A stretch of 21,003 nt of DNA from Promethearchaeota archaeon (GTDB lineage: Archaea > Asgardarchaeota > Lokiarchaeia > Sigyniarchaeales > SOKP01). Below are positions 2,128 through 21,003 of this stretch, in pieces (the stretch's first letter is position 1; each line of letters starts with the position of its first letter). Where the stretch lies: assembly GCA_004524535.1 (NCBI GenBank), contig SDNY01000063.1:1-21003 (forward strand), given 5' to 3'. The notes below the pieces were generated by a model that saw only the letters and a program-made list of their open reading frames with translations, was not told the origin of the DNA and did not search any database. The translations under genes and the position numbers were made by a program.

Positions 2128-5100
2128 ATCTGTATCTCCTCCATTTCTTTTTCTTTATCAATTAAAACGATTTTTGCTTTCCTCTTTTTATTTCGTTTAT
2201 AAAAGATAACAAGAGCGCTAATTACAACGGCTATTATTGCAGTTAATATGAACATCGAATAATCGGCTGGAACTGTGATAGTAACTTCGTCCACTGCGAT
2301 GACTATACCACTTTTATCATACATGAAAATTTGGATATTTTTTTCACCAGCTCCAAGAGATACTTTACATGACAAGGATTCTGTCCTATTATAAACATTT
2401 CCATCAATTATTAACTCGAAGAAATCGTAATCTGCATCCGTTTCCCATTCAATAGTGAATCTACTCGATTTCATCTTATCATCATCTTCGAGGTCAGAGA
2501 ATTCAACTTCAAATTCTGAATTTATACAAAAGAACGATTCACCACTTGCAAGAATAAATTCTGGTTTTCTATCACCTGTAAAATCAACGGTCCTATATAT
2601 TGCATCAACACTTCCTAAATTAAACCTATAGAGTAATTCTTGATTGTATATATCTAATAGATCTGTAATATGACCAGTTATATAAGCATCCTCTGAACGT
2701 GTATATGTATTATGGCTACAAATAATTTCATCCTTTCCATCTCCATTAAAATCACCTATGTTTTCGATAACATCGAAAAATTCATAAGTGACTTCTTCCC
2801 AGTCATACGTTTGTTCATATGGCTCTAACTCCCATGCTTCTTTATCAAAACCACTGTCATCGTCATCATCATCATCGTCATCATCATCATCAGCAATATC
2901 CCATTCTTCTGGTTCAATTTCTTCTAATTCAAAACCAGAACTATGAGCAATATCTAATGGTAAAATTGCTGCACCTTTTGAATATAAATTATCATCCCAA
3001 CCACTCTTAGAACATTGCGTTCCAATAATCCCATCAAGAATATTGTCTTCATTGAGATCACTTGTGTACGCAAATGGCAATGTAAACGTTCGTTCGTCTG
3101 GATCGATATCGCTTTGCCATTCCTCATACTTTTCGCTAATCTTACCATCTTCAATTATTTCTTCTAGATCAATGTCAACAATCGCATCGCCAGGATTAGT
3201 TGAAGATCCGCTAAAAATTTTAATACTTCGACCCCATTGGGAGGAAGCTAAATGTTCATAATAACCATCCCCATTTAAGTCAGCATACGAAAATTTAATT
3301 CTATAACCAATATAATTTGGTCTAAAATCGTTCCTTGCAGGCGTCCATCGACTTCTTCCGAGGGGATCTAAGTTATCAGGATTATTTATATAACAGACAA
3401 GAGATTGTGTATCGGGATTAATAATTTTTATTCCTTGGAAGGAATTAGAATCTGTTTGGTAATCACCTAAAATTAATCCTAACTTTCCATATTTATATGG
3501 AGTTGTACCTGGAATTTCATAAAAATCACTCCATTTATCTGTATAATTGAGAGACATTGCATCATTATAAGATATCGTCGGATCCGCATAATTATCATAG
3601 TTAGTTATTGAATTATCCCAATCAGCATCATCGATGTATTCATGAGAAAAATATCTACCACCATCTTCAAATGTACCACTTAAAATCCAACCGTTTGAGC
3701 TACTAATATCGTATATTGTAGCGCTAACACGACTAAAAGGAATTTTATCTCTACGATTATTAAGATCATAATCCCACTGAGCAGATATTCCCTGATTTTT
3801 CACATCGTAAAGAATTAATCTTGATGACCAATAAGGAGAACTATAAGATGTTTCATATCCGGCCACTACTAATATATCAAGATACTCATCTCCGGTACCA
3901 TTTATCACCTTGAAATCTTGAATTTTAAGATTTAAAATGTTATCTAATTTAGGTTCCCATTTCTCAGTATTCAAATTATACTTATACACATAATATTGAT
4001 CCCATTCATTACCGAATACGCCCCAGTAAAACATAGCAACCCCAAAGCTATCAATAGTAAGATTGAAAGGTTTTGTATAAGTAATATTGATACGTAATTG
4101 TAAAATATTGTTGGACATAAAGTATTCCGATATAAAAGATTCATTTGCGTAATCAAATTCCACACCATTATCTATACCCCATACTTTTGTCGGATTATAG
4201 GTTCCACGTTTAATGATATATAAGCTGTCATTTCTGAATGAGTTAGTTAGATTAAAACTCGTAGCATTATTTCTATATCCAAGAGGTTTTTCTGGGGAAG
4301 ATGTAGCATTGTTGTAATCTCCGTGCCAAGAATTGAAAGGTGCTTCTGGACCAATAGTTCGTTCACTTGCATTGATACTAAATGGAAGCCAATTATCCCC
4401 AGTAGCATTTTTAATCTCATATCTGAAATTATATACCCCATCCTCAGTGCGATTAGAATAAACATTACTTTGAATTTTTAAACCAGATAGTCTTTCTAAT
4501 TGACTAAGATCATGATAATCAAATCCAAATTCAACTGGAATAGTGAAATTAATAACAGTCTCCCAGATTGTTCCTTTATTCTCTGCTTCAATCGTATAAT
4601 TGCCCAACTCATATAAATAATTGACAACTAATTCATCGATCGATAAATCAAAACTTTTAGAATCTTCTGCATCAATTCTAATCCTTACTAAGTTATTATT
4701 ATCATCATCAACAAAATCAATGACCTCAGCCCATTCATCTTCTAAGAATTGCCATTGAACACTAGTCGAATTTATTGAATTCGGACTTATTCTTCTCCAA
4801 TCATGAAGAAATCCATCCCATATCGAAATGTCTATCTCATCAACTACTTTTGAGAGGTTTCCGATATAGTCTACGATGAGATATTTTGGAAGCCTTCCAA
4901 AATCTAATGATTGATTAAAAGACATTTCTATTGCTATTCTCTGTTTTCCTCCAGAAGAGACCGAATCAACAGTCCAAAAATTATTATCCTCTTTTTCAGT
5001 ATCTTCAGAGGAGCTAACTACAGCAGCACCGATTTTTATATCTGCCGTTGCGTCAGAGGAAGTTATAGTATGATTATCTCCGGTAAGTCCAAATAAATCG

Positions 5101-16549: not shown

Positions 16550-19500
16550 CTAATAATTCCCTATTGTCATAAATTCAAATCCTTCAAAAGGCTCTAAATT
16601 AATTATGGTAGTGGAATTTGTATATACTTCAAAAAGAGTTTCATAAAACGCTTCTTTTTTATCCATACCTTGTGCCCAAATACGAATATTATGAATGCCT
16701 ATTGTATATCCATCTATTGAAAAAACTATATCTTCATCAGGGATATAAGGTCCTTGATCTACTATAACATCATCAATAGATACATTAAAAAAACCTGAAT
16801 AGTCTGAGGAAATACTAAAATTTAGCAAATTACCTGTTGTCATAAATTGATAGTTAGGAATCTCATTTATATTAATAAGTGTTATTGAATTAGAGAACAC
16901 AATAAATTCAGCAGAAGCCGTTCCAACCTTATAATCTTCTCCAATCGCCCAGATGGTGATATTATGAGGGCCTATCCCATATCCATCTATACAATAATTA
17001 ATGAGTTCCCCACTTATATAATCATCCTCGAGTTTTAGCTCCGTATCAATAAAGAGCTTAAAATAATCCGGATACCGTGAACTAATATTAAAACTTACAA
17101 AATGTCCAAGAGACATAAATTCATAATCATTAAGCTCTATTATTTCAACTTGAGTAATTGACAGAGAATATACGGTAAATGAAGATCCACATGTAGATAC
17201 CTTGCCTATACTATCATTAGCCCAAATTAAAATGTGATGCTCTCCAACATCATATCCATCAATTGAGCTGGTTATTATATCTCCCCCAAACTCGTAGCAC
17301 CCTTGATAAACTAAAAAATTATCTATGAAGATTTTATAAGATTCTGGAAAGGAAGCATTAATTTTAATGAGAGCAGTATGTTCAGTTGTTCTAAACTCAT
17401 AATTAGGGAGAGAAATTATATCTATATAAATAAAGGATTTACCAAATACTTGAAATTGAACCATAGAAGAAGTCTCTTTTTCATCGGAACTATTTGCCCA
17501 TATTAAGACAGTGTGTATTCCAACTTTATATCCGTCTAAACTGTATATTATAGATTCTCCATTTAGATATTTACCCGAATCAACCAAGATATTGTCAATC
17601 TTCAATTCATAGCTATCAGGATAATCTGAAAAGATACTAAAATTTAGAATGTTGCCTGTACTGTTATAGAGAAAATTATTGATATGATTTATTTTAATAA
17701 TCGTTTCTGAATCTGAATAGACTGAAAGATATGCCTCAATTATTCCATCCTTCCCATCTAGAGCTGTTGCAATTATAGAGACATTATGAACTCCGACTTT
17801 ATACCCATCAATTGAAAAATTAAATATTTCACCATCATAATAGTGACCAGAGCTTATTTTATTACCATCAATTGTAAAATTATATTGATCAGGATATTGC
17901 GAAAATATTTGAAATGAAATATTATTTCCTTCGGACATAAATTTATAATTATTAAGCTCTAATATATTAACTATTGTAACAGAATCTGAGAAGACCGCAA
18001 ATATAGCAGAAGTCTCACAATAATTATCATCTTTAGAAGTAGCATTAATTTTCAAAATATAATCACCTAATTGAGCTGTATAGTTGTCTAAGGAATAGAT
18101 ATGCGTTGTCTCTCCATAGTTAAAATTAGTGGAGTTTGCAAGTTGGTTATTAATCCAAATAAAATAGGTTCCGGAATAGCTTGAGCTTATATTAAATTTA
18201 AGATAATTTTCTGTACTTAAGAATTTACAATTTTCAAGATGTTCAATATTTATTATAAGGGAAGAATCACTTAATTCATATAAATAAAGCTCACATACCC
18301 ATAATAGAATATCTTGATTAAGGTCCTTTCTTTCAGTTGTTAAATAAAATTCCTTGTACTCATTATCATGAATATCATTAATTAAATCATAAATTAGATC
18401 AAAATTAAATTCAATGTCCAGGTCTAGAAGCCCATCAATTTTCCAAGAATAGTATATATTCTTAATATTTGAGTAATCAAGATTATTTTCTATGAAATTC
18501 TTAATTTTCTGAGTATTTAGTGAAAACATATCGGTCTCGTTTAGAATATAGATCATATAATAAGTAGCCTCAAGAGAGTCTTCAATTTTGTTGCTGTATT
18601 CAAATTTAGAATATATCTCGGTCGGGGTCTCAATAATATTATTAGAAACATAAGAGTATAATGCTGCTGTATCGACACCAAGACTTTCATAATCGCCTAG
18701 ACCTTTATAGTCAGAAATTAATTTTAAGATTTTTATAGCCCAATAAGAGTACTTAAAACGAACATCGTTGTCTTTCCATTCTTCAGGAACAGAATGAGTA
18801 TCCCACCAAGGATCATTCCAATACGAATCTGCCATAAACCCTCCAAAATTACTTTCAGCATTGTTTAGATATTGACTGTTTACTACCTCAGAAATCACAT
18901 CCTCAAGATCATACTCCCCATCAAAGTCATCGAGTTTGGAGGTTCTCTCAAGGATATCTAATGCCTTGTATAATGTCATTAAAGAAGAATATCGATTTGG
19001 AAAAGAGTATTCAATAGGATAGGCCCTAAATTGTCCATGTTTCGGAAAGGGCGAGACCATCAAAGGGTTGGTTTCATGCATAGAAACAGACGTAAATTCT
19101 GGATTGGGATACTTTTCAGTTGCATCATCGATAAAATCATAAATCATTTGAATATCCAAATCTCCGACTCTCCCATAGAGGTCAAAGGAATTCACAATAG
19201 AATATAGCAAACTTAAACTCATATAATCCTCAGAAAGCGCCGAAAATCCCTCTCCCGACATATAATTTGTCATTGAATTTGCGATTTCATTTTTATTTCC
19301 AGATGTCAATTGAGAGATCTCACCCGTATGTACCAAGCTTCTAATTACTTGGTAAGAATCAATAAGTTCGTGGTATCCAGGTATATTGCATTGCTCCCAA
19401 CTACCCATTGAGTTTCTGTTGTCAAAGAGATAATCTAGAACTGCGCTCCTATTAATACCAGCATACCCATAAATGTCAGACAATTCTAGCCCAACAGCAG

Positions 19501-20548
19501 ATGCCGGAACGCTAAGTTGTACGGTATAAGCAGGATAAGTACAGTACTGGAAAAAATCGCCACCTTCATTATAAAGCGCACCTAGATAGTCAAGGAAATC
19601 ATTTACTCTAATAGTATCCTCCATTCCAAATAACTCTAGACTCTTGACGCAATAATAGGACGAAAAGATATTTGGCTCACTAGCAAAAGCTTCTAAACTA
19701 TCAAAACTGTTAGCTCCTTTGTCAAGATCATTCCAGAACCCTCCAAATTGCCAACCGCCAGATTCTTGTAGAGAATTAATATAATCAATGATATTGGAGA
19801 TTTGGGTTTCGTAGCCTACCCAGGTATCCATAAGAAGATCTAAGGTAGTTAACGCAAAATAGGTATTATCCATTGTAGAGATTCTATATTCGTTATCTGG
19901 GCTTGTAGCGTAAGGTCTTCCTATAAAACCCCCCGTTATCGGATTATAGCAGCTCCATATAAAATCAATTGATTCTTGCTTATCAATTAATCCTAGTTGT
20001 CCTAACATCTCAAGCGTAAGAATCGCATAACAATTGACTTCCAGCAAAGTGGTAAAAGGATAATACTCATACCGTGTACTGAAATCAATGCTTAGATATC
20101 TCTCGGCGTAAGCGTCTATGAATGTATACGTACTTGAGTTATAATGTGACATTATAAAATCTGTTATTTCAGTTTGATTGACTGTATTCAACCGATTAAT
20201 CGCATGAAGTAGGTAGACCGCATAATAAGTCGCTTGTAGGGAAGATTTATAGATTTGAGGGAAATATCCCTTAGAAGAATATTCGTTCATTTTATTATCC
20301 AGAGTATTGTTAATCAAGTCAGAATTGCTAGAGGAGGCTGAATAAGGAGGAGAATCATTGTTAATGATGTATTTATCTATCGGAACATCCCCTTCTTCAA
20401 GAACATATAGACTAGGATTTTTCTTCTGCTTATTTATATCATTATTATCTTGACTTGATGTTATCTCGGTTAAAAAGACTCCCAGAATAATAATTGATAA
20501 AAATAAAATAAAGAATTTGATCCTATAATTTTTTTCTCTAAAGACCAT
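16550..20548 (-). CDS. Exported protein with prenyltransferase/squalene-cyclase-like (alpha/alpha barrel) repeats and tandem Ig-like repeats; appears C-terminally truncated
   Basis: N-terminal signal/TM (IKFFILFLSIIILGVFL). Repeats of the type GGF....(S/T)YYA..L..L (QATYYAVYLL; GGFIGRP..NTYFALTTL; GGFWND..SSYYCVKSL; GGFMAD..YSYWAIKIL; EATYYMIYIL), then beta-rich repeats. No C-terminal anchor. Confidence 0.8.
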   Translation of the reverse strand: MVFREKNYRIKFFILFLSIIILGVFLTEITSSQDNNDINKQKKNPSLYVLEEGDVPIDKYIINNDSPPYSASSSNSDLINNTLDNKMNEYSSKGYFPQIYKSSLQATYYAVYLLHAINRLNTVNQTEITDFIMSHYNSSTYTFIDAYAERYLSIDFSTRYEYYPFTTLLEVNCYAILTLEMLGQLGLIDKQESIDFIWSCYNPITGGFIGRPYATSPDNEYRISTMDNTYFALTTLDLLMDTWVGYETQISNIIDYINSLQESGGWQFGGFWNDLDKGANSFDSLEAFASEPNIFSSYYCVKSLELFGMEDTIRVNDFLDYLGALYNEGGDFFQYCTYPAYTVQLSVPASAVGLELSDIYGYAGINRSAVLDYLFDNRNSMGSWEQCNIPGYHELIDSYQVIRSLVHTGEISQLTSGNKNEIANSMTNYMSGEGFSALSEDYMSLSLLYSIVNSFDLYGRVGDLDIQMIYDFIDDATEKYPNPEFTSVSMHETNPLMVSPFPKHGQFRAYPIEYSFPNRYSSLMTLYKALDILERTSKLDDFDGEYDLEDVISEVVNSQYLNNAESNFGGFMADSYWNDPWWDTHSVPEEWKDNDVRFKYSYWAIKILKLISDYKGLGDYESLGVDTAALYSYVSNNIIETPTEIYSKFEYSNKIEDSLEATYYMIYILNETDMFSLNTQKIKNFIENNLDYSNIKNIYYSWKIDGLLDLDIEFNFDLIYDLINDIHDNEYKEFYLTTERKDLNQDILLWVCELYLYELSDSSLIINIEHLENCKFLSTENYLKFNISSSYSGTYFIWINNQLANSTNFNYGETTHIYSLDNYTAQLGDYILKINATSKDDNYCETSAIFAVFSDSVTIVNILELNNYKFMSEGNNISFQIFSQYPDQYNFTIDGNKISSGHYYDGEIFNFSIDGYKVGVHNVSIIATALDGKDGIIEAYLSVYSDSETIIKINHINNFLYNSTGNILNFSIFSDYPDSYELKIDNILVDSGKYLNGESIIYSLDGYKVGIHTVLIWANSSDEKETSSMVQFQVFGKSFIYIDIISLPNYEFRTTEHTALIKINASFPESYKIFIDNFLVYQGCYEFGGDIITSSIDGYDVGEHHILIWANDSIGKVSTCGSSFTVYSLSITQVEIIELNDYEFMSLGHFVSFNISSRYPDYFKLFIDTELKLEDDYISGELINYCIDGYGIGPHNITIWAIGEDYKVGTASAEFIVFSNSITLININEIPNYQFMTTGNLLNFSISSDYSGFFNVSIDDVIVDQGPYIPDEDIVFSIDGYTIGIHNIRIWAQGMDKKEAFYETLFEVYTNSTTIINLEPFEGFEFMTIGNY
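16553..18270 (-). repeat. Six complete ~91-93-aa Ig-like protein repeats plus the first 22 aa of a seventh
   Basis: Consensus S.T.I.I..L.NY.F...GN...F.I.S.YPD.Y...ID......G.Y..G.....SIDGY.VG.H.I.IWA...D.K......F.V(F/Y)S recurs six times. The seventh (NSTTIINLEPFEGFEFMTIGNY) ends at TAG. Confidence 0.9.
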
Positions 20549-20628
20549 GTAAAAAAAAACTGATGAGTATATTTAAAAGAAAAAAAAAAGAATCATTATC
20601 AACATATAGGTTTTAGGGGAGAGGAACA

Positions 20629-20656
20629 CATCTAGATGAGTATTATCTATATAAAT
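20629..20656 (-). promoter_or_regulatory. Putative TATA box for the 1332-aa gene with an adjacent 10-bp palindrome
   Basis: Minus-strand TTTATATA at 20655-20648. Perfect palindrome CATCTAGATG at 20629-20638, between the TATA box and the expected TSS. Confidence 0.3.
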
Positions 20657-20724
20657 GAATAAAAAAGGAAAAAAGGATAAAAATTTTATATTATGATATT
20701 TTACATTATATTGGCAATATAAAA

Positions 20725-20844
20725 GACTCCTGCCGCACCCTGGATTTTTGTCTTTTGGTTAGTGCACTTAGGTGCGCTATGATTTTGCCCCACTTCTCCT
20801 TAGAGATTTTACGACCTTATCGTTAGGTCTCGCGGGCAGGAGTC
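20725..20844 (+). ncRNA. Candidate structured non-coding RNA (unclassified)
   Basis: GC-rich island in AT-rich intergenic DNA. Perfect 10-bp closing stem GACTCCTGCC/GGCAGGAGTC, internal hairpins at 20760-20779, 20795-20806 and 20813-20829, and a T-rich tract from 20848. G-U pairs favour the + strand. Confidence 0.5.
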
Positions 20845-21003
20845 ACCTTTTTAAAATTTTCTATTTTCAAGTTCCATTATTGACTTTTCATTTATATGTT
20901 ATTAAAAGTTATAGATACATGGTACATCAAAAAAAATTCGATTATTTTTAGAAATTTAGATTGATTGATAAACGACGAGTTTTTTTAATAATTTAACAGC
21001 AAA

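Follow-up and report, generated by a model that had tools for sequence, protein, structure and literature searches.

We identified a candidate RNA gene at 20725-20852 on the + strand of a stretch of 21,003 nucleotides (nt) from a Promethearchaeota archaeon (contig SDNY01000063.1 of assembly GCA_004524535.1; the whole stretch is hereafter called the window). The element is very probably a genuine and conserved gene that stands alone and encodes a structured RNA of a new family. In the reading that we favour, this RNA of about 125 nt would act in trans as a small ribonucleoprotein (RNP), with an Sm-like protein ring docked on an invariant U-rich strand. We assign this statement as a whole, comprising both the family and the Sm-ring mechanism, a probability of roughly 0.4, and the trans-acting RNP mechanism taken alone is put forward tentatively. 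That 20725-20852 holds a stand-alone gene for a small structured RNA, and that its family is undescribed, is close to certain.

The closing stem, hairpins and T tract of the element can be read directly from the window sequence. The closing stem P1 consists of a 5' strand, GACTCCTGCCGC (20725-20736), and a 3' strand, GCGGGCAGGAGTC (20832-20844), which pair in the minimum free energy (MFE) fold with G20834 bulged, a pairing also indicated by covariation. Within this stem, GACTCCTGCC (20725-20734) is the exact reverse complement of GGCAGGAGTC (20835-20844), giving 10 bp. The 5' strand of P1 is followed by the single strand J1/2 (20737-20759), which contains the invariant core CTGGATTTTTGTCTTTTGG at 20740-20758, and by the hairpin P2, TAGTGCAC-TTAG-GTGCGCTA (20760-20779), with one G-U pair. 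Next come the pyrimidine-rich strand J2/3, beginning TGATTTTGCCCC (20780-20812), and the hairpin P3, GACCT-TATCGTT-AGGTC (20813-20829). The 3' strand of P1 runs into a tail, ACCTTTTT (20845-20852), which follows the family pattern N-C-C-Y-U-U-U and is the probable end of the transcript. An earlier note on this DNA, made from the window sequence, had described these stems and hairpins, the T tract and a fourfold recurrence of TTAG, and re-reading of the sequence located all of them at the same positions. The strands for which that note proposed alternative pairings were likewise correctly placed, namely GATTTTTGTC (20743-20752), TTTTGCCC (20783-20790), GGGCAGGA (20834-20841), CGCACC (20734-20739) and GGTGCG (20771-20776).

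The predicted MFE of the + strand was -48.7 kcal/mol, compared with -30.2 ± 3.15 kcal/mol in 200 dinucleotide shuffles (z = -5.87), none of which folded as well, in agreement with the structured element of the earlier note; the − strand gave a z-score of -3.01. Moreover, the element forms a GC island, with 42-48% GC between flanks of 17-25% GC.

The architecture of the family was read from an alignment of 88 sequences together with oriented prints of all loci. The plan comprises P1 (10-16 bp), J1/2, P2, J2/3 with the consensus CUCUGAUUUCGCCCUCCUCCCCCUAUUUUAUUU in the 88-sequence alignment, P3, the 3' strand of P1 and the tail NCCYUUU. RNAalifold recovered P1 and P2 unaided, with compensatory change at 13/19 pairs. 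A structure of 26 pairs was then written on a 42-sequence MAFFT alignment that was not fitted to structure (A3), in which 89.0% of cells pair, compared with 84.4% after shuffling (reached in 0/500 shuffles) and 36-45% with slid partners. A covariance model built from A3 (R1) gave 99 matches in 100 loci, and in the resulting model-fitted alignment (A4) 93.1% of 2,333 cells pair, as against 72.4% in shuffles and 23-44% in slid controls. Double changes in A4 numbered 437, compared with 98.8 in shuffles, and compensatory changes were found at all 26 modelled pairs of P1, P2 and P3.

Each helix contributed to this signal. In the 99 homologues, P1 showed compensatory changes at 14/14 modelled pairs, with 92.2% of cells paired, and both its sequence and its pairing are conserved. 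P2 showed such changes at 7/7 modelled pairs (92.1% of cells paired), visible already among five paralogs of the element's own genome, and P3 at 5/5 pairs (97.7% of cells paired), for example GACCU/AGGUC to GACGC/GCGUC. The covariation counts from A4 lean towards the aligning model, and related sequences inflate the shuffle tests, which must be counted against our interpretation; the unfitted alignment A3 and the slid controls nevertheless agree with A4 in direction. In addition, G-U pairs occupied 143 helix cells and A-C mismatches 47, and this excess points to the + strand as the RNA strand, in line with the + strand small RNA that the earlier note had proposed. The position of the U run on the 3' side and of the promoter-like block on the 5' side indicates the same strand.

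The most conserved part of the RNA lies outside the helices. The 19-nt U-rich core is identical in 87/88 aligned members; 18 of its 19 columns are invariant, and the remaining one differs in one sequence. This core is invariant while all helices vary, both in the 88-sequence alignment and in A4. Across the 99 members, J2/3 is 76% pyrimidine and contains the recurrent sub-motifs YUGAUUUYGCCC and CCCUAU, with CCUCC present in 45/99. The paralog alignment showed that J2/3 of the window copy deviates from the family consensus GCCCUCCUCCCCCUAUUU, and this strand includes the hairpin TCTC-CTTA-GAGA (20795-20806). Among the hairpins listed in the earlier note, the first and third recur and covary, as does the closing stem, whereas TCTC/GAGA and the fourfold TTAG are private to the window copy; only 17.8% of TCTC/GAGA cells are paired in the 99 homologues, with which the paralog alignment agrees.

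Lineage-specific extra hairpins were observed at fixed points of J2/3, after P2 in loci L028/L045, L029 and L134 and within GCCCUCC|CCCCCU in L093, L128 and L138. They resemble the expansion segments of structured RNAs.

Sequence outside the closing stem is also conserved. The six bases before P1 are conserved: A occupies -6, -5 and -2 in 89-97 of 106 upstream regions, and U stands at -1 in 78/106; the anchor pattern used for this count dictated position 0 and the five bases after it. A further block, ATAGGR, lies mostly 22-30 nt upstream in 32 of the 106 distinct upstream regions, compared with 2.8% of random 60-mers of the genome. In the window, a putative promoter region, TTTACATTATATTGGCAA, lies at 20700-20717 on the + strand, about 8-25 nt 5' of the RNA. 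In place of ATAGGR, a block TTAYRTTAT..TGGCAA is shared by the window copy and the paralogs on contigs C70 and C123 at equal distance 5' of the RNA. Downstream of P1, the tail of the 99 members has C at +2 in 72 and at +3 in 73, and U at +5 to +7 in 77-78. U runs are established as archaeal transcription terminators. Taken together, the conserved bases before P1, the upstream block and the NCCYUUU tail fit a primary transcript from P1 to the U run. The RNA would probably have its own promoter, with transcription starting at the first G of P1 or immediately upstream of it and stopping in the U run.

BLAST searches found five full-length copies in the element's own genome (3.66 Mb in 198 contigs, 99% complete), the other four being 90, 87, 86 and 73% identical to the window copy. 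All five share sharp boundaries, from GACTCC to CACCTTTTT, and their flanks are unrelated. The same genome holds three short diverged relatives, at C52:24061-24150 (−), C189:360-411 (−) and C32 ~2680-2790 (+). These short variants consist of the closing stem and core, with the CUGAUUUU block in two of the three and without canonical P2 or P3; the C32 copy holds only the inner 14 nt of the core. They are below significance with R1, two scoring 19.3 and 18.5 bits and the C32 copy not being reported. Because the short variants keep little beyond the stem, the core and the CUGAUUUU block, they point to the core as the functional unit. In the BLAST comparisons, the block GCACCCTGGATTTTTGTCTTTTGGTTAG was often the sole part still alignable in relatives.

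The distribution of the RNA is narrow. By BLAST among 40 relatives, it was found in 22/23 genomes of its own family (f1), 1/11 of the neighbouring family f2, 0/1 of f3 and 0/4 of f4. With R1, 41 genomes of the order gave 21/21 for f1, 3/14 for f2 (2/2 in g20 and 1/1 in g69), 0/1 for f3 and 0/4 for f4. Over 151 genomes of the phylum, R1 detected the RNA in 25/25 genomes of f1 and 1/125 of all other families, the latter being one weak hit of 27.5 bits under stricter filters. The closed 6.0-Mb f2 genome G182 contains three homologues. Homologues from f2 follow the same plan with a shorter core, AUUUUGUCUUUUUGG, then P2 and UGAUUUCGCCC, and their P1 is different. Copy number was 1-7 per genome by R1 in the phylum and order samples, and as many as 11 sites with the core were detected by BLAST in a single genome.

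The exact 19-mer CTGGATTTTTGTCTTTTGG occurred at no fewer than 120 loci, at least 120 being the count in a search of one genome per prokaryote species. Among the 80 matches listed, three carried bacterial labels, 18 were named 'uncultured archaeon' and the rest had Asgard names (Promethearchaeota/-ia and some Hermod-, Hod-, Thor- and Odinarchaeota). Records titled with the latter four names do carry the RNA (L039, L056, L063, L080, L082, L090 and L091), and the element of L056, labelled Hodarchaeota, is identical to that of the same-genus genome L012. It therefore appears that the varied phylum names in record titles were given by submitters to members of one Genome Taxonomy Database family.

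An IMG/VR scan with the 19-mer gave four loci, one of which is a family member (37.9 bits). This member, L179, lies in the range 102252-102870 of the 224,826-bp contig IMGVR_UViG_3300029288_000001, which could be a misfiled piece of chromosome or a large mobile element of these archaea. A viral origin of the RNA was considered and rejected; the other three loci score 16-17 bits, look like chance sites and read as coding-like.

No known family accounts for the element. At gathering thresholds, Rfam 15 gave no match in the whole window, and with relaxed thresholds over 20600-21003 it gave only noise at E-values of 2.9 and 6.6, neither match covering the element and one overlapping just its first 25 nt. 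Twenty diverse family members likewise had no Rfam 15 match at E ≤ 1. These results support the earlier note's view that the element matches no recognised family. ARAGORN called no transfer RNA (tRNA) or transfer-messenger RNA gene in the window. Outside subscription journals and supplements, the core motif string was in no relevant paper searched, its three matches being human VSX1 primer listings. In the consulted portions of the literature on Asgard non-coding RNA, small nuclear RNA (snRNA) and small RNA (sRNA), again outside subscription journals, no description of the RNA was found. Two specific candidates were also rejected. For a Y RNA, the element's own genome has no TROVE/Ro60 gene (no match to PF05731, with control genomes behaving as expected). 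For a 5S rRNA, the element has no RF00001 match, and a separate, permuted 5S-like gene is present elsewhere in the genome.

We propose that the stems only frame the invariant U-rich strand CUGGAUUUUUGUCUUUUGG, which would serve as the docking site of an RNA-binding protein. The partner that we favour is an Sm-like (SmAP/Lsm) ring on the A-U5-G heptad. The core contains AUUUUUG, single-stranded between two helices, and the element's own genome has four open reading frames (ORFs) with an LSM domain. The eukaryotic Sm-site consensus is AAUUUUUGG, of which A-U5-G is the heptad, and archaeal SmAPs bind poly(U) (PMC5587771). When the family was compared with the pattern R-A-U(4-6)-G-R between helices, an invariant G-A-U5-G-U was found, the last base of which is U and not a purine. 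In the proposed mechanism, the pyrimidine-rich J2/3 might pair with purine-rich (Shine-Dalgarno-like) stretches of mRNA, and the diverged paralogs would be 'sibling' small RNAs. The 3' end of the 16S rRNA reads GGAUCACCUCCUAAU, to whose CACCUCCU J2/3 bears a resemblance, and start codons of the genome are preceded by an excess of G at -12 to -8.

Several observations, in addition to the lean of the A4 counts, weigh against this interpretation. The base that follows AUUUUUG departs from the Sm consensus purine, and U-rich strands are common in a genome of 30% GC. The invariant block of 19 nt exceeds the need of an Sm ring, which hints at another or an additional partner. Two LSM paralogs that were profiled occur both inside and outside the range of the RNA, giving no co-occurrence signal; outside the family their identity declines to a similar degree, which makes the profile uninformative. 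Furthermore, CCUCC is limited to fewer than half of the members (45/99) and is absent from the window copy, which has CUUCUCC. Reading through the core-holding loci, without a dedicated target-site or short-seed search, brought no long antisense match to the core to attention; in the orientation of the core, these loci read as members of the family or resemble chance sites. Finally, we infer the transcription, ends and strand of the RNA from sequence.

A first rival explanation invokes a partner other than an Sm ring. The RNA could be a scaffold, decoy or sponge for a lineage-specific RNA-binding protein or a conserved RNA, which it would titrate or deliver, and this partner would read the 19-nt strand together with the CUGAUUUY and CCCUAU blocks in a sequence-specific manner. 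We regard this explanation as unlikely, while noting that the 19-nt block and the further conserved single-stranded blocks are more than a heptameric Sm ring constrains, that confinement to one archaeal family and a few neighbouring genera is what a lineage-specific partner predicts, and that P1 is kept in sequence as well as pairing. However, the neighbouring genes differ between paralogs, so that none is linked to the RNA, and reading of the core-holding loci, without a dedicated test, brought no conserved complementary RNA to notice. A cis-acting leader, riboswitch or switch, in which a junction pocket would bind a ligand or protein while P1 and the U run gate read-through, is improbable. 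The covarying stems around conserved junctions and a P1 that leads directly into a U run are like those of many riboswitch aptamers, and the downstream gene is co-oriented in 21/27 loci examined with 3 kb of context. Because some of these loci are orthologues of one another, they do not count as independent cases, and the figure exaggerates the support for a leader. Moreover, the downstream gene is convergent in 6/27 loci, with gaps of 4-1109 nt overall and 95-813 nt to the co-oriented genes, and downstream functions are unrelated. Downstream of the paralog on contig C7 stands a gene for a radical-SAM protein whose N-terminus carries a zinc ribbon (Pfam; four loci in four genomes and two genera), and four further loci have a same-strand ORF of ~410-430 aa at that position. 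For another paralog, the next gene downstream encodes a DEAD-box helicase (two loci), and others adjoin a gene for TFIIB or for a CCG-domain protein. The convergent loci and the disparate functions found downstream speak against a general 5' leader. In the same set, no locus overlaps any ORF of ≥90 aa (0 of 27), and the upstream gene is divergent in 17 of the 26 loci that have one; together with the convergent loci and the sharp boundaries and unrelated flanks of the five paralogs, this supports a stand-alone gene. The conformational switch of the earlier note, with three alternative partners for the 3' arm, also did not hold up. The invariant decamer GAUUUUUGUC can pair with the 3' arm of P1 in 90% of cells, which would favour a switch, but its pairable positions drop from 10 to ~5 of 10 as the 5' strand of P1 departs from GACUCCUGCC. 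P1 itself retains 9-10 pairs in most diverged groups, and 7-8 of 10 at 7-8 differences. As P1 holds while the decamer pairing decays, the match is best seen as a by-product of the commonest P1 sequence. The pairing of UUUUGCCC with the 3' arm is possible in 70.6% of cells, which is lower than in the +1 slid control (81.5%), and that of CGCACC with GGUGCG in 30.6%. In the f2 homologues, whose P1 differs, the alternative pairing looks lost by eye. Conservation therefore supports neither the alternative pairings nor the conformational switch built on them.

A self-cleaving or processed RNA, for example a small ribozyme of a new kind or an RNA that undergoes cutting and circularisation, with the junction nucleotides as its active site, is a still fainter prospect. 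Small ribozymes typically combine multiple copies and covarying stems with junction strands that do not vary, and this genome seems to make a circular form of a permuted 5S rRNA, so that RNA cutting and joining would be active in the lineage. On the other hand, no Rfam ribozyme family was matched by the 20 members searched at E ≤ 1, no bulge-helix-bulge motif was seen by eye in P1, and the short variants retain the core without P2 and P3, unlike a catalytic fold. The alternative raised in the earlier note, a miniature inverted-repeat transposable element (MITE) or single-stranded DNA hairpin element with P1 as its transposase ends, has very little left to recommend it. Like MITEs, the element is short, occurs in several dispersed copies and has terminal inverted repeats, perfect over 10 bp (20725-20734 and 20835-20844). 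Further points in favour are that one member lies on a 225-kb contig filed as viral and that the window copy and several copies in relatives are near contig ends. Unlike a MITE, it shows syntenic orthologues with the same neighbours across genomes and genera, and the inverted repeat covaries as an RNA helix. The aligned flanks of the five paralogs share no direct repeats that would represent a target-site duplication. Its internal hairpins change by compensation, with G-U exceeding A-C by about 3:1, which indicates selection on an RNA of one strand, and the 3' tail and upstream motif are conserved outside the inverted repeat. Pfam searches of 12 neighbouring ORFs from 10 loci detected no transposase, TnpB/IscB or IS110 recombinase, which also speaks against an IS200/IS605 omega/reRNA or an IS110 bridge RNA, the window itself showing only ~150 nt downstream. 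An active MITE is ruled out by the conserved gene neighbourhoods, by a low copy number, with only five full copies that are 73-90% identical, and by the absence of direct repeats common to the flanks.

The RNA shares features with several known systems. Like 'domain A' of Sm-class snRNAs and the sRNAs bound by SmAP, Lsm or Hfq, it presents a single-stranded A-U5-G between two helices in a small, closed and stable-looking RNA, in a genome encoding four LSM-domain proteins. It differs from Sm-class snRNAs in lacking an Rfam match, in the U after the heptad and in an invariant block far longer than an Sm site. Sibling trans-acting sRNAs with an invariant single-stranded region are known, such as Qrr1-5 of Vibrio. 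The present family is similar to these in having several diverged paralogs per genome, one invariant single-stranded block and drifting stems; in contrast, it is archaeal and forms a closed three-helix RNA, not a row of hairpins ending in a terminator, and no target complementarity was found for it, albeit without a dedicated target-site search.

C-rich regulatory sRNAs that resemble an anti-Shine-Dalgarno sequence include RsaE of Firmicutes and sRNA41 of Methanosarcina mazei. The pyrimidine-rich J2/3, with CCUCC in some members and its resemblance to CACCUCCU of the 16S 3' end, is similar to these RNAs, but the motif is not universal and is degraded in the window copy, and the most conserved block is U-rich, not C-rich. 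Y RNAs are Ro60-bound RNAs; they share with the element a length of ~100 nt, ends paired in a long stem, a pyrimidine-rich interior, a 3' U run and multiple copies. Unlike them, the element occurs in a 99%-complete genome without TROVE/Ro60 and has no match to Y_RNA in Rfam.

The remainder of the window is archaeal, encoding ribosomal protein S24e, Kae1 with a Bud32-like kinase and an Rpo7-like protein. The contig stops 151 nt past the element, and the downstream neighbour in the window is thus unseen. In relatives, too, a contig end is no more than a few hundred bases away from several homologues, for example G018:C65:8-135 and G018:C80:1-120. The minus-strand gene at 16550-20548 encodes a protein of 1332 aa with an N-terminal hydrophobic stretch that resembles a signal peptide; a prenyltransferase-type alpha-alpha toroid domain (Pfam) comes next, and then many repeated modules of ~90 aa. 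The toroid domain is the only one that Pfam gives for this gene, which the earlier note took for a putative toxin gene; no toxin domain was detected.

A separate observation concerns other stable RNAs of this genome. RF00001 detected no 5S rRNA in it (E ≤ 0.01) or in three same-genus assemblies, and a genome of the neighbouring family has three RF00001 5S copies at 64.5 bits. Outside the window, at C7 ~20100-20300 (−), a GC-rich island was found that bears 5S hallmarks in swapped order: GGAAGUUAAAC...AGUACUG...GGGAAC precedes ACCCGGUCCCAUCCGAACCCGGAAG, that is, the 3' two-thirds of 5S rRNA stands before the part with helix II/III and loop C. The flanks of this 5S-like sequence are complementary, reading ACCACAAAAG / CTTTTGTGGT in several cases. 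The locus (represented by L186-L198) is conserved in 12/17 f1 relatives, and three aligned sequences have an insert of ~30 nt in loop C. Judged from the order of these motifs, the 5S rRNA gene appears to be circularly permuted. One study reportedly treats the permuted 5S rRNA of organelles. In our search on permuted 5S rRNA, the only 5S match in the consulted portions of the sources was organellar, and the archaeal matches dealt with permuted 23S rRNA.

ARAGORN in default mode called only nine tRNA genes in the same genome despite its 99% completeness. Many tRNA genes may have introns or be split or permuted and so escape default detection. Nine tRNAs were too few for a comparison of the element's flanks with tRNA genes in search of a tRNA-like end.

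To our knowledge, very few Asgard non-coding RNAs have been described beyond rRNA, tRNA, signal recognition particle (SRP) RNA and RNase P RNA, and none beyond these four was found in the consulted portions of the literature searched. In this family, which is strongly conserved and multi-copy, almost every aligned member has the same core, and these members span at least a dozen genera. Since the invariant strand is Sm-site-like and the genome encodes several Sm-like proteins, the question of what Sm proteins of Asgard archaea bind becomes testable with one short RNA. That the RNA is the core of an Sm-type RNP in Asgard archaea, with a canonical A-U5-G heptad between helices on an archaeal Sm ring, is a long shot; if true, this RNP would be a prokaryotic counterpart of the 'domain A' architecture of small nuclear RNPs in the lineage closest to eukaryotes. 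The three homologues in the closed genome G182 may open the way to experiments, if that organism is in culture. The family offers a tangible starting point for studying RNA-based regulation, or the biology of RNPs, in those prokaryotes that are the nearest relatives of eukaryotes.

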